Below, one piece after another: positions 15,981 through 58,172 of a stretch of 64,000 nt of DNA. Position 1 is the stretch's first letter; the number at the start of each line of letters is the position of its first letter. The notes under the pieces were generated by a model that was not told the DNA's origin, did not search any database, and saw only the letters and a list, made by a program, of their open reading frames with translations. The stretch comes from Acidobacteriota bacterium. GTDB taxonomy: Bacteria; Acidobacteriota; UBA890; WLXD01. Location: positions 864,001-928,000 of the forward strand of contig CBDBHB010000009.1 in NCBI GenBank assembly GCA_965205505.1, read 5' to 3'. Made by a program: the position numbers and the translations under genes.

Positions 15981-15997
15981 TGTTACAGGCCACTAGT
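15981..15997. repeat. Solo end of the palindromic MITE-like repeat (TGTTACAGGCCACTAGT)
   Basis: 17-nt exact match to 57113..57129. Confidence 0.7.
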
Positions 15998-53327: not shown

Positions 53328-54572
53328 CTAGACAGGGCGCAGCATCGGCACCACCTTGCCGCCCTCAGCACTCAGGTAGGCGGCCCAGTCTTCCATCAGC
53401 TTCCGGCGCCGCTCCAGCAGGTCCGAGCGCGCATAGGCCGCCTCGGTGGGGTCGCGCACCGCATGCGCCAGCGCCGCCTCCATGACCGCCCGCGGTGCGT
53501 TGGTGCACTCCGCCGCCCAGTCCCGGAACGATGAGCGAAACCCGTGCGGTACCGCTTCAATGCCCAACTGCCGCAGCACCCGGGAAAGGGTCGCGTCCGC
53601 CAGCGGCCTGCCGGCCCGTGCACCGGGAAACACCAGCCCCTCGCCATCCCTGAGCCCCCGCGCCTGGCGCAGGATCTCCATTGCCCGGCCCGATAGCGGT
53701 ACCCGGTGCGCCCGGTTCGACTTCATGCGCTCGGGTGCAAGAGTCCACTCCCTCGCCTCCAGGTCCATCTCCTGCCAGGTAGCCAACCGCACCTCGCCGG
53801 AGCGGGCCGCCGTCAACACCAGAAACTCCAGGGCCAGCTTCACCACCCCGGAGGCATCCGAAGCCCGTACCGCCTCGATCGCACCGTCCACCTCGGCATG
53901 CGGCAACGCCCGCATATGCTGTCGCCGCTTGCGGTGCCGTGGCAGCGCCTGGGTGATCGCCTCACCAGCCGGGTTGTCGCCACGGTACCCCTGCGCCATG
54001 GCCCACTTCATCACCGCACCGATGCGCGCCCGCACCCGCCGTGCGGTCTCGGCCTTGTCATGCCAGATCGGACCCAGTACCTCCAACACCTCGGCCGTCG
54101 TCACCTCCGACACCGGCATCTCACCGATGCGCCCGTACGCATAGGTGCGCAACTCCGTTTTCCATTGCGCCGCATACTTGGCGTTGCGCCACCCGGGGCG
54201 GTGCATCTCATACACCTTGGCCGCTGCTTGCGCGAACGTCGGCATGCCCTCGGCCCGGCGCTTGTCTGTCAGCGGGTCACCGCCGGCACGGGCCAGCTTG
54301 CGGTTGGCAAATGCCACCTCGCGCGCCTCCGACAGCGACACCAAGGGGTAGCCTCCGAGACCCAGTTCCCGGCGACGGCCCTGGATCACGATCCGCTGTA
54401 CCCAGCTGCGCGCTCCGCTCGGGATCACGTTCAGGTACAGGCCGTGTCCATCGCAGTACCGGCCCGGCTTCATTACCGTGCGTACAAACGCCGGCGACAG
54501 GGCCCGCTCCGGGTGCTTGCCGCTCTTGCGCCGAGGGCTGGGTTTCGGTGTAGTTGCTTGCGCATCGGCCAT
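53328..54572 (-). CDS. P4-like tyrosine integrase with arm-binding domain
   Basis: DGHGLYL..GRRRELGLGGYP.VSLSEAR; catalytic AARSGEVR, MK, HGFR, LAH, AAY all present. Confidence 0.95.
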   Translation of the reverse strand: MADAQATTPKPSPRRKSGKHPERALSPAFVRTVMKPGRYCDGHGLYLNVIPSGARSWVQRIVIQGRRRELGLGGYPLVSLSEAREVAFANRKLARAGGDPLTDKRRAEGMPTFAQAAAKVYEMHRPGWRNAKYAAQWKTELRTYAYGRIGEMPVSEVTTAEVLEVLGPIWHDKAETARRVRARIGAVMKWAMAQGYRGDNPAGEAITQALPRHRKRRQHMRALPHAEVDGAIEAVRASDASGVVKLALEFLVLTAARSGEVRLATWQEMDLEAREWTLAPERMKSNRAHRVPLSGRAMEILRQARGLRDGEGLVFPGARAGRPLADATLSRVLRQLGIEAVPHGFRSSFRDWAAECTNAPRAVMEAALAHAVRDPTEAAYARSDLLERRRKLMEDWAAYLSAEGGKVVPMLRPV

Positions 54573-54685: not shown

Positions 54686-55099
54686 CTAATAGGTCAACTC
54701 AGGAATGCACCGGATCTGGACGATGGCAGAGATTTCGAGCGCCAGCGTCAGCAAGATAACAATCGAGAAACCGGGGGAGCGGACCAGAGAACGAGCAGCG
54801 AAGCGCAGGTCTTTGAGTAGTAACACGAACATCTGGGCACCGTCCGGGGAGTCGAAGTAGGTTCGATGATGGAGGCGGGCCGCGCTGCTACGCTGGTCCC
54901 GGGTCACACGCCACAGGTCGCGCAGGGTCGATATCCAGAAGCGTGGCAAGGCCAATGACCGGCCCGAATGTCGGGCGGCACGATGACCATCGCGGAAGAT
55001 CGAGAGCATCTCGGCTGCCGCCTCATGCCGGAGCTCAGCCGGGGTCAGTCGCAGCAGCGCCGCGTAGACGCGCTCTGCACCGGTGACGTGCTTTCTCAC
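54686..55099 (-). pseudogene. 5' fragment of the ADOP permease
   Basis: Nearly identical to the first ~121 aa of 44420; diverges after LTLAL at the repeat boundary. Confidence 0.9.
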
Positions 55100-55272
55100 C
55101 GCGTCTCCGGTACCGGGACCACCAGATCAACGTTAGCCCGTCGGACCAGCTCGGCCAGGCGCCGAGCCTCCGCGGTGGCTACTTCGTTGCCGGCCGGGGT
55201 CAGCCGATAGTACTGGCGACGCGCGTCTTCTCCTTCGTCGACCGCGCTGGTGTGCTCGATCAAACCCCGCGC
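54731..55272. repeat. 542-bp direct repeat, copy 2
   Basis: See copy 1 (offset 10679). Confidence 0.95.
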
Positions 55273-55458
55273 GCGTAGCTCCTTGAGCGTTCGGTAGAGA
55301 GTGCCAGGACGGAGGATCGCCTGCTGCCCGACGTGCTCGTTGGCCCGCAGCATGATTCCGTAGCCGTGCAGCGGCGCCTCGCGAAGTACCACTAGGATGC
55401 TGAACACCACGGGCCGAAGCGGCAGGTGGGCTTCGGGGTCGATGATCGTTCGCGACAT
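55096..55458 (-). CDS. PadR-family transcriptional regulator
   Basis: FSILVVL..PLHGYGIM, GTLYRTL, RRQYYRLT. Confidence 0.93.
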   Translation of the reverse strand: MSRTIIDPEAHLPLRPVVFSILVVLREAPLHGYGIMLRANEHVGQQAILRPGTLYRTLKELRARGLIEHTSAVDEGEDARRQYYRLTPAGNEVATAEARRLAELVRRANVDLVVPVPETR

Positions 55459-55564
55459 GGCGTACTAGATGAGATGAGAAGGCCAACCTCCTGACGCAGT
55501 AGTCTGACGGCTCTGCAAACGTTTCTTCAAACGTAACGGGCTCGAAGCCCAAGGAGGTTGGCCG

Positions 55565-56612
55565 ATGAGGAGTGTAACGATTGGACTGGACGTAAGCGAC
55601 CGGTACAGCCGTATGTGCGTGCTCGACAGTAAGGGCAGGGTGATGGAGGAAGGGCGGGTGAGGACGAGCCCGGAGGGGCTGGCGAGGCGGTTCGGGTGCG
55701 AGGAGCCCGCTCGAGTTAGTGCTGGAGGTTGGAACGCACTCGCCGTGGATGAGTGAGCAGTTGAAGCAACTGGGTCATGAGGTGCTGGTGGCTAACCCGA
55801 GGCGGCTGAAGCTGATCTATGGCGAGCACGACAAGACCGACCGGTTGGATGCCGAGCACCTGGCACGAGTGGGCAGAATGGACCCAAAGCTGCTTAAGAC
55901 GGTGCAGCATCGAGGCAGACAAGCGCGAGCGGATCTAGCCGTGATTCGGAGCCGAGATGCTCTGGTAAAGAGCCGCACGCAGTTGGTGAGCCATGTGCGT
56001 GGTGCGGTCAAGTCGGCCGGTTGTCGTATTCCCAGGTGCTCGACGCCGGCGTTCGCGCGCACCGCGCCAGAGCACATACCGGAGCGGCTCAAGGGAGCGC
56101 TCGAGCCGGTGCTTGAAACGATCGCCATGCTGACGGGCAACATCCAGCAATACGAGCGTCAGATCGTGCAGCTGTGCCAGGGGCGATACCCGGAGACACA
56201 GCAGCTCCAGCAAGTGGCCGGGGGCGGAGCTCTGACCGCACTGGCGTATGTGCTGACGCTCGAGGAGCCGGAACGGTTCAATACCTCCAGAGCCGTGGGC
56301 CCGTACCTGGGACTGAGACCGAAGAAACGGCAGTCGGGGGACAAGGACCCTGCGCTACGAATAACCAAGGCGGGCGACAAAATGCTCCGACGCCTGTTGG
56401 TGGGCTCGGCGCATTACATCCTGGGCCCCTTCGGGCCCGATACTGAGCTCAGACGCTGGGGGCTCAAGCTGGCCGGACGCGGTGGTCCTCATGGCAACAA
56501 AAAGGCAGCAGTTGCTGTCGCCCGTAAGCTCGCCGTTGTGCTGCACCGACTGTGGCTGAGTGGAGACGAGTACGAACCGTTGCGCGCACCTGTAGAGGTT
56601 TCAGCAGCATGA
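55565..56612 (+). pseudogene. IS110 DEDD recombinase with +1 frameshift at ~55717
   Basis: IGLD, then LEVG, KTDRLDA, QSG (catalytic Ser), AVARKL, split across two frames at CGAGTTAGTG. Confidence 0.9.
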
Positions 56613-56619
56613 ACTAACC

Positions 56620-56845
56620 CGCAACCAGGAGGTCGGTAGGGCGACGCGACCCAACGGTTATCGATCTGACCGCCCGGTCCGGGCGACTGCGAAGGTCACT
56701 ACGAGCTTCGAGCTCGGCAGCTAGATTGCAGCGCCTCGATCGGGACGGACCCCAGAATGCACCGGACGACCTAGAACCCTCGTCCACCAGAGTGCGAATA
56801 GGAGCATGGCGTGCAGATCGCTAATCGAAGGGCACCATGTTGCCC
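56620..56845 (+). ncRNA. Putative bridge/seek RNA of the IS1111 element
   Basis: Stem CTGCGA/TTGCAG enclosing an internal loop AGGTCACTA / GCAGCTAGA and the hairpin CGAGCT-TCG-AGCTCG; a second stem-loop carries ATAGGAG. RNA boundaries approximate. Confidence 0.7.
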
Positions 56846-56871
56846 TTGACCGAGCTAGGCCTTCTCATAGA

Positions 56872-57128
56872 AGTGGCCTGTAACAGATCATCGTTGCATA
56901 TCGTGGTGGCGAAATGGGTCCGGATGCCAGGCGCGACGACGAGACGATGTTTGCCCATCTTGGAGGAGGAGCAACGCCGCAGACGGGCTGATTTCGCCGC
57001 CAGTTGCGGGCGATATCGGCGTTGCGCCTCGTCGACGATGCCCACTGCATCGCCTTCCTCGCCGCGCCTTGATCTCACCCGCAAATCCCATCTGCGATAT
57101 GCAACGATCATCTGTTACAGGCCACTAG
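56872..57128. mobile_element. CTAG-flanked palindromic MITE-like element (two inverted core units)
   Basis: 30-bp TIRs 56874..56903 / 57095..57124 with 1 mismatch; internal halves are imperfect inverted copies; left CTAG split by the IS. Confidence 0.85.
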
Positions 57129-57148
57129 TTATGCTCGAGGGGAAAAGC

Positions 57149-57190
57149 CTTTGCTTACGAATATATCCATTATCGAATGGATAAGCAAAG
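57149..57190. promoter_or_regulatory. AT-rich palindrome, candidate PadR operator
   Basis: CTTTGCTTA...TATCCATT-ATCG-AATGGATA-AGCAAAG; lies ~30-75 nt upstream of padR once the IS and MITE are removed. Confidence 0.5.
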
Positions 57191-57320
57191 CGCTCTTGAT
57201 CCCGGTGCGGAGGGCTCGGTCGCCGTGTGGGCGCGCCCGGAGCTGCTCGCGCGAGATCGACGGGTGACCGGTAGACTACTGGCGCTCGTGTCGTCCGTAC
57301 CCAGACTTCGAGGTAACCAT

Positions 57321-58091
57321 ATGCGCTGGCTCTGCTCCGTGTGGATGTTGTCCTTGTTGGCGATCCTGGTCGCTTGCGGCGGGGCCGAGCCTGCCGCCGA
57401 GGACGCAGTCCCTAGCGTCGAGCCACCGGCGTCGGCCGAGCCACCGTCGGTCGAGCCACCGGCGGCGCCGCCGTCTCCCGAGTCGGAGCCGGAGCCGACA
57501 CCAACCGTCTTGCCGCCCCTGCTGAACCCGGCGCACCCCGACGCTAACGCCACGGCCCCGACGGAGTATCGGGTCGTCCTCGACACCACCAAGGGCGACA
57601 TCGTGCTGCAGATCTATCGCGATTGGGCGCCGCGCGGGGCGGACCGTTTCTACAACCTCGTGCGCGCCGGATTCTTCACCGACGTGCGGTTCTTCCGGGT
57701 CGTCGACGGGTTTGTAGCGCAGTTCGGAATGAACGGCGATCCTGAGGTGAACGCCGCCTGGGACGCGGCCGAGATGCCGGACGATCCGAGCATCGGCGAG
57801 ACCAATTCGCGCGGCCGCATAACTTTCGCGCACGCCGGGCCGAACACCCGCACCACACAGCTCTTCCTCAGCATCGGCAACAACGCGTTTCTCGACCGAC
57901 AGGGCTTCCCGCCGTTTGGCGAGATCGTCGAGGGCCTCGGTGTGCTGGACAGCCTCCATCAGGGGTACGGCGATTTCCCCCCGTCAGGTAGTGGACCCGA
58001 CCCGGGGCGGATTGGTGTGCAGGGCAACCGGTACCTGGAACGCGAGTTCCCGATGCTCGACTATGTGCGTCGCGCGCGCCTGCTCGAGTAG
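57321..58091 (+). CDS. Cyclophilin-type peptidyl-prolyl isomerase, lipoprotein with Pro-rich linker
   Basis: LVAC lipobox, WAPRGADRF, FFRVVDGFVAQFG, NTRTTQLF, FPPFG. Confidence 0.93.
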   Translation: MRWLCSVWMLSLLAILVACGGAEPAAEDAVPSVEPPASAEPPSVEPPAAPPSPESEPEPTPTVLPPLLNPAHPDANATAPTEYRVVLDTTKGDIVLQIYRDWAPRGADRFYNLVRAGFFTDVRFFRVVDGFVAQFGMNGDPEVNAAWDAAEMPDDPSIGETNSRGRITFAHAGPNTRTTQLFLSIGNNAFLDRQGFPPFGEIVEGLGVLDSLHQGYGDFPPSGSGPDPGRIGVQGNRYLEREFPMLDYVRRARLLE

Positions 58092-58172
58092 CGGGGCCTG
58101 TCGGGTGTGCGCCCACCGGTCGGCCAGTCGACAGCACACTAGTGGCCAGATCCCGGACGGCGGCCGATCAAA

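Follow-up and report, generated by a model that had tools for sequence, protein, structure and literature searches.

An IS1111-group insertion sequence with a probable RNA guide to a 10-bp motif at the tips of a MITE-like family in an Acidobacteriota genome

We analysed a 64,000-nucleotide stretch of an Acidobacteriota genome (the window; C9:864001–928000 of the 5.98-Mb, 9-contig assembly GCA_965205505.1, labelled G000), in which positions 55467–56873 are an IS1111-group insertion sequence (IS) of the IS110 family. The IS occupies the tip of a 255-bp element resembling a miniature transposable element with inverted repeats (MITE). A non-coding region (NCR) of about 260 nt (56613–56871) lies 3' of its transposase gene and contains a loop whose two strands match the DNA on either side of the IS. 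We consider it very probable that a seekRNA, or bridge RNA, from this region guides insertion into the sequence CT-AG-TGGCCT. The evidence is the uniform flanks of 31 insertions in this genome and the covariation of loop and flanks among related elements.

Junctions and the 10-bp target

At the left junction CT (55465–55466) is followed by the core AG (55467–55468) and ATGAGATGAGAAGGCC, and at the right junction CTCATAGA leads into the core AG (56872–56873) and then TGGCCTGTAACAG. The junctions therefore read CT-AG-ATGAG and CATAGA-AG-TGGCCT and have only the AG dinucleotide in common; with the same flanks at 31 ends, there is no target duplication beyond this shared core. Excision of 55469–56873 in silico yields GTACTAGTGGCCTGTAACAG, the left CTAG end of the MITE, as an earlier reading of the sequence alone had claimed. 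The features named in that sequence-only reading were all borne out by a sequence check, and its IS boundaries hold as well, except that its IS end is off by one base, a difference due only to how the core is counted.

A BLAST search of the genome found 27 full-length and 6 partial IS copies with 97.9–100% identity, and a separate search for the ends gave 31 left and 31 right ends. The 30-nt left flanks are distinct in 30 of 31 cases and the insertions are therefore independent. The right flank is TGGCCT in 31 of 31, once in the form TGACCT (per-position counts of 31, 31, 30, 31, 31 and 31 of 31), while the left flank carries C in 29 and T in 28 of the 31. In the flank logo, only the left CT and the right TGGCCT carry information, with G at +7 in 27 of 31, and conservation beyond +7 mirrors the identity of the MITE. 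The conserved flank bases are exactly those covered by the two NCR loop strands.

The specificity is for the 10-bp motif CT-AG-TGGCCT and not for the MITE as such. Twenty-four of the 31 insertions are in MITE-type termini (10 MITE-A, 5 MITE-B and 9 with the 13-nt tip only or a variant) and 7 are elsewhere. The genome contains 111 vacant CTAGTGRCCT sites, versus ~21 expected from base composition, of which 65 are in MITE-type termini; occupancy is 24 of 89 at MITE-type sites and 7 of 53 at others. Two vacant CTAGTGGCCT sites are found in the window at 15987–15996 (−) and 57119–57128 (−), along with a one-mismatch site at 58139–58148 (+). These are the vacant targets that the sequence-only reading had placed at 15987, 57119 and, in part, 58138. 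That reading had also proposed that the loop is directed at the end of the repeat family: the guide–target match is supported, but the true target is the 10-bp motif. Its suggestion to inspect the flanks of all genomic copies revealed no unrelated targets. The target that the loop would match without a wobble, CTAGTGACCT, is rare, with 2 vacant and 1 occupied. The DNA coding for the 5' guide strand (56693–56702, −) is itself a one-mismatch target copy (GTAGTGACCT versus CTAGTGACCT) and is unused by all 31 copies.

That 24 of the 31 right ends abut a MITE-type terminus could also be explained if the IS and MITE formed a composite unit, whose adjacency reflects co-transposition and not targeting. 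However, the MITEs next to the IS copies are of more than one subfamily or incomplete, 7 insertions lack any MITE and 65 MITE-type tips are vacant. In addition, among four same-genus genomes (G001–G004), the MITE end motif CTAGTGGCCTGTAACAG is present 119 times in G002, 115 in G003, 56 in G004 and 3 in G001, yet a protein search of all four at E 1e-30 found no IS copy. We regard co-transposition as highly improbable.

Guide segments and their covariation with the element's surroundings

The stem CTGCGA (56687–56692)/TTGCAG (56726–56731) encloses the loop strands AGGTCACTA (56693–56701) and GCAGCTAGA (56717–56725). The 5' strand, AGGUCACUA, covers one left-flank base, the core and six right-flank bases, and the final A of the 3' strand corresponds to the first base of the left end (LE). 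All 27 full copies have the same loop. The sequence-only reading had described this stem with its internal loop, a left strand matching the target with one U-G wobble and a right strand containing CTAG; we confirm all three, and the stem is kept in relatives with compensatory changes.

In the mechanism that we favour, the 3' NCR would be transcribed into a seekRNA or bridge RNA that has one target-binding internal loop and is bound by the transposase. The 5' strand would pair with the target top strand and the CUAG of the 3' strand with the bottom strand, such that both strands jointly would define CT-AG-TGGCCT as the target, and strands would be exchanged at the AG core. For the donor, AUAGGAG after stem P3 would pair with the element's own right end and core, and a possible partner of the left end is the junction stretch CCCCA. 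The IS would accumulate at MITE ends, where sites are repeated and dispensable, because the tips of an older MITE family are where the 10-bp motif mainly occurs in the genome.

Relatives were found in a same-order genome (G011, where the element is split), at 7 metagenome loci, in one GTDB contig (43% identical) and as matches in 19 of 400 sampled genomes of the phylum, a tally that includes G166, which was left out of the analysis. The transposases of the 20–21 distinct relatives compared are 43–68% identical. The scaffold GACUGCG-(loop)-hairpin-(loop ending AGA)-UKGCAG is common to all the relatives. Their loop sequences vary, and no two of the tested relatives have the same loops. The 3' strands of relatives consist of their own left flank, the core and A. 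In G011, the nearest relative (67–68% identity over the C-terminal 57% of the protein; 63–68% in its two pieces), scaffold and left end hardly differ from those of the window IS, the loop is CGGACUCUA/GAGUAGA and the flanks are GAGT-AG-AGTCCG.

The correspondence between loops and flanks was quantified by permutation, using one row per distinct element (21 elements for the 5' strand and 20 for the 3' strand). L035, L039, L052, L059, L061, L063, L064 and L065 were dropped as duplicates, L042, L049, L050, L054 and L057 for a missing end or scaffold pattern, and L040 (27% identity, without the scaffold) and L044 were also dropped. The reverse complement of the 5' strand matched its own right flank with a sum of 164, versus 114.6 ± 4.5 when permuted, and the 3' strand matched its own left flank with a sum of 133, versus 101.1 ± 3.9; for neither strand did any of 20,000 permutations reach the observed sum. 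The loop–target covariation that the sequence-only reading had put forward as a check across homologs is thus present.

The stems around the loops are also conserved. RNAalifold predicted the outer stem, inner stem and stem P3 from 25 sequences, and over 18 pairs in these sequences 92.4% of cells are paired, compared to 84.4 ± 0.8 in shuffled alignments and 24–46% with slid partners. Eight pairs are changed on both sides, and none of 500 shuffles reached the observed values on any of five measures. An Rfam search of 55000–57600 matched no family, even at E 10.

On the donor side, a copy of the element's own right-end terminus is found directly 3' of P3 in every relative. Its variable A/G position (ATAGAAG or ATGGAAG) is the same in guide and right end in all 22 relatives with a known end. 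The second core base matches in 21 of them, three elements with an AA core among these. The comparison confirms AUAGGAG as the predicted guide for the right end. The sequence-only reading had noted the likeness of ATAGGAG to the donor end ATAGAAG but had found no convincing second donor guide; the former now stands as a right-end guide, and for the latter the candidate, CCCCA (56750–56754), is only suggestive. This segment changes with the end, as seen in the combinations CCUCA/TGAG (L036, L048), CCUUA/TAAGG (L041), UCCA/TGGA (L058) and ACCA/TGGT (L054). Left-end guides score 95 with their own ends versus 89.7 ± 2.0 when permuted, a value reached by 175 of 20,000 permutations, with G000 scoring lowest. 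Another stretch, AUUCUUCGC of the consensus copies in the 3' part of the NCR, was considered as the second donor guide and rejected, as it is unconserved in relatives and altered in the window copy.

Several points weigh against an RNA guide. The 5' strand meets the usual TGGCCT through one U-G wobble, the window guide AUAGGAG differs from its end ATAGAAG (a mismatch found in no other element of the set, which against the bottom strand would form a G-T wobble), and in both the window IS and G011 the left-end candidate is mismatched, CCCCA facing TGAG with a C-A mismatch. The local fold of the single sequence does not exceed shuffles in stability (z −1.14, 20 of 200 folding as well), and the whole NCR has a z of −2.9. 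When the NCR is shuffled by dinucleotides, 297 of 5000 versions (5.9%) match the 18-nt restored site over 9 nt with no more than one wobble. As the relatives are kin, the permutation counts overstate independence. The guide RNA is here a prediction from DNA sequence: the IS or part of it occurs in 20 sequencing runs from 9 studies, 3 of them recorded as RNA, but metatranscriptome contigs that contain the IS are no proof of an RNA. Contigs from 2 metatranscriptome and 2 other runs, compared over 55380–56920, cannot show transcription, strand or RNA ends; they contain the consensus IS and break at the IS ends, with no joints and hence no circle junction. Match and fold are weak for the single element; the evidential weight comes from the 31 genomic copies and the covariation in relatives.

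The frequency of such matches in shuffled NCRs means that one element is not decisive, and would leave room for the transposase protein alone to recognise CTAGTGGCCT, with the loop match coincidental. We find this very hard to credit, since the loops differ in 20–21 relatives yet track their own flanks, the core base changes jointly in the loop, donor guide and ends of the AA-core elements L053 and L066, and the scaffold around the loops is kept with compensatory changes. The conserved structure might instead regulate transposase expression, for example by affecting mRNA stability or serving as antisense target, with no role in guiding recombination; IS110-family elements can carry regulatory small RNAs, as described for ISPpu9 (PMC12288879). 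A purely regulatory RNA would, however, give no reason for the loop bases to match DNA outside the element in each relative, and we consider this explanation very unlikely. The features discussed here and below are listed in Table 1.

Table 1 Coordinates of the IS, its guide segments and the adjoining MITE in the window
Feature	Position	Strand	Description
Left junction, CT flank and core AG	55465–55468	+	with 56874–56879 makes the split target CT-AG-TGGCCT
Left end (LE)	55469–55564	+	extension ATGAG, subterminal inverted repeat ATGAGAAGGCC (55474–55484), 12-bp hairpin; 96 nt before the ATG
IS110/IS1111-family DEDD transposase gene, frame broken	55565–56612	+	open reading frames (ORFs) 55565–55756 and 55719–56612
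Predicted target-binding arm	56680–56736	+	outer stem GGGCG-A-CUGCGA/UUGCAG-CGCC, internal loop, inner hairpin 56702–56716
5' loop strand AGGUCACUA	56693–56701	+	complementary to top strand T-AG-TGACCT
3' loop strand GCAGCUAGA	56717–56725	+	CUAG (56721–56724) = left flank CT and core AG
CCCCA, candidate left-end guide	56750–56754	+	in the junction before P3; complementary to TGGG of the usual LE extension
Stem P3	56758–56796	+	UGCAC (56758–56762)/GUGCG (56792–56796), enclosing hairpin P4; paired in 100% of cells, one compensatory change
Hairpin P4	56764–56769/56780–56785	+	GGACGA/UCGUCC; predicted from alignment and fold only
AUAGGAG, predicted donor guide	56798–56804	+	reads like the final 7 nt of the RE (ATAGA and AG) in the same sense, one G for A
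TTGACC	56846–56851	+	TTGAC kept 21–22 nt before the right end in 8 of 8 end-aligned sequences
Right end (RE)	56858–56873	+	subterminal inverted repeat GGCCTTCTCAT, extension AGA, core AG (56872–56873)
MITE-like palindromic element	56874–57128		255 bp in this copy and about 275 bp in most others; ends in CTAG

Transposase, ends and genomic copies

The IS has all the IS1111-group features tested, namely the domains, subterminal inverted repeats (sTIRs), NCR, protein length and motif, and lack of a target duplication. PF01548 (DEDD_Tnp_IS110) and PF02371 (Transposase_20) were found in the two ORFs and both are above cut-off in the long one; the intact protein, taken from other copies, matches NCBIfam NF033542 ('IS110 family RNA-guided transposase') with 205.5 bits (cut-off 140). 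This protein has 348 residues and contains GLRPKKRQSG, which fits the IS1111 motif GL-P----S/TG. The sTIRs form a 17-nt imperfect pair (55474–55490/56852–56868) with the exact 11-bp core ATGAGAAGGCC, and the left and right terminal extensions beside the AG core measure 5 and 3 nt, respectively.

An extra T at 55716 breaks the transposase frame in the window copy and is common to 3 of the 27 full copies, this one included; 11 copies have a 4-nt deletion and 5 a 1-nt deletion. Ten of the 27 keep an open frame of 367–369 codons, and the protein search gave 10 matches that run uninterrupted over residues 1–348. The repair of the frameshift that the sequence-only reading had proposed for a recombination assay is therefore not needed, as the genome itself supplies intact full-length copies. 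The occurrence of the same frameshift in many copies at different sites suggests that defective copies were mobilised in trans, and the frameshifted copies, that in the window included, were probably moved by intact ones.

The left sTIR region is part of a perfect 12-bp inverted repeat (55481–55492/55552–55563), in which GGCCAACCTCCT pairs with AGGAGGTTGGCC just before the transposase ATG. The second arm includes GGAGG just 5' of the start, such that pairing would mask the ribosome-binding site. Since this pairing is kept in relatives with differing sequences, the hairpin is probably a conserved control on translation. At the other end of the IS, TTGACC may be the −35 box of a weak promoter that would form only in a circular intermediate, of the kind described for ISEc11. 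A −10-like GAAGAT, noticed by eye, would be placed 18 nt after TTGAC(C) only by the circle junction. A promoter scan of 55400–57200 in the integrated state found no full sigma-70-type site, and the junction-promoter idea thus leans solely on the conserved TTGAC.

Between 56738 and 56854, outside the guides, a cluster of about 12 positions sets the window copy apart from each of the 26 other full copies, for example GATCG-CTAATCGAAG versus GATCGATTCTTCGCT in the consensus and CCATGT versus CCACAT, while the remainder of the element hardly differs. The four public runs likewise have contigs with the consensus form here, and either patchy conversion or local decay is possible. Two pairs of copies share one flank and differ in the other: C6:423090 and C6:513833 have the same 40-nt left flank, and C6:13156 and C6:189957 the same 60-nt right flank, a pattern that points to copies having recombined, to a segmental duplication or to assembly joins made at the repeat. 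A single mini-derivative of ~115 bp (C9:2875347–2875443) joins left-end positions 1–97 to a degenerate right end; it has neither transposase gene nor NCR and lies outside the usual target.

The MITE family, known systems and meaning

The terminal inverted repeats (TIRs) of the MITE in the window (56872–56903/57095–57126) are 32 nt long and 97% complementary, and its right tip (57119–57128) is one of the vacant IS targets. Genome-wide there are 25 TIR pairs spaced 275–299 bp apart, and the end motif CTAGTGGCCTGTAACAG occurs in 112 copies with at most one mismatch. It is found in few copies in other genera. The IS guide is one wobble from the MITE tip. As the motif is abundant in three of the four same-genus genomes and the protein query found the IS in none, the MITE family is the older of the two and widespread in the genus, and the IS looks like a recent invader to which it offered many ready-made sites. 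TIR pairs 0.6–4 kb apart hold no evident transposase that would mark an autonomous parent of the MITE. Variants of ~550 bp exist, as do very short palindromes of two back-to-back tips (CTAGTGGCCTGTTACAGGCCACTAG; for example C9:1656966–1656990), with 14 TIR pairs less than 50 bp apart; like the ~275-bp MITEs, both offer the same IS target.

At the orthologous intergenic site between the PadR and cyclophilin genes, G004 and G001 have neither MITE nor IS, and the empty-site data fit a MITE target duplication of either CTAG or TA. In the window, MITE and IS together (55460–57128) lie 6 bp upstream of the start codon of the PadR-family regulator gene (55096–55458, −). They part this gene by 1.66 kb from DNA that adjoins it in two same-genus genomes, and its promoter may thus be displaced. 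A tyrosine integrase gene (53328–54572, −; Arm-DNA-bind_3, Phage_int_M and Phage_integrase) is located 0.9 kb to the left of the IS and may belong to an integrated element.

Among characterized elements, the window IS resembles ISEc11, ISPa11, ISKpn4 and ISPst6 as described by Siddiquee et al. (2024, PMC11187229), in the portion of that article used here: it encodes a DEDD transposase within the IS1111 range of 330–350 residues with the GL-P----S/TG motif, and has sTIRs and a long NCR downstream of tnp. The IS1111 seekRNAs in that account likewise lie downstream of tnp, and the order of strand matches, with the top-strand match 5' of the bottom-strand match, is the same as in the window IS. 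Unlike these four, the window IS targets a MITE tip together with the flanking CTAG, and its RNA is predicted from sequence. No close named relative was found in a plasmid collection, where the best match is 36.4% identical and all 4051 records are below 60%.

With IS621 and ISCro4 (PMC11208160; PDB 8wt6, 9t56) the IS shares only the C-terminal domain (E 6e-8 and 6e-9, respectively, over the C-terminal part of the protein). In the sections of Durrant et al. (2024, PMC11208160) drawn on here, the IS621 RNA is upstream of tnp and its donor loop is a simple internal loop, whereas in the window IS the RNA would lie downstream, the order of strand matches is reversed, the sTIRs are long and the donor bases flank P3 in an apparent multiloop. 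The same source places IS1111 bridge RNAs in the RE and the donor-binding bases of many orthologues in a multiloop, not a simple internal loop, which fits the layout seen here.

These features can be drawn together in a broader reading, which we rate as somewhat less likely than not. It concerns the IS and its clade of ~25 distinct members, from one phylum and metagenomes, and has four parts. First, donor recognition in the clade would have a junction-type layout, the right-end guide directly 3' of P3 and the left-end guide directly 5' in a multi-helix junction unlike the internal loop of IS621. Second, the guides would tolerate a wobble or mismatch in three of four segments despite high activity (31 copies, 98–99% identity). 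Third, the target, flanking CTAG plus MITE tip, would straddle the boundary of another transposon's insertion, a hyperparasite niche made by the MITE. Fourth, the IS apparently invaded one lineage only, while the MITE motif is numerous in three of the four other genus genomes searched.

Insertion of IS110-family elements into repeats is an old theme, with REP (repetitive extragenic palindromic) sequences, attC sites and the inverted repeats of Tn21-type transposons as targets known long before RNA-guided recombination by IS110/IS1111 was published in 2024. Like these repeat-targeting family members, the window IS enters repeated or mobile DNA site-specifically, where sites are safe and present in many copies; its host element differs in being a ~275-bp MITE-like family of an environmental genus. 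A literature search returned no IS110-family element aimed at MITE ends among the top matches listed, and ISfinder was outside its scope. The mechanism is already known and the target class is new. The case adds a natural IS1111 element for which one genome offers ~31 independent insertions alongside 111 vacant sites, and ~20 relatives in which guides and flanks can be compared element by element. These provide raw material for the guide rules of the less studied IS1111 type, above all donor recognition and wobble tolerance, and a neat instance of a mobile element that lives on another's ends.

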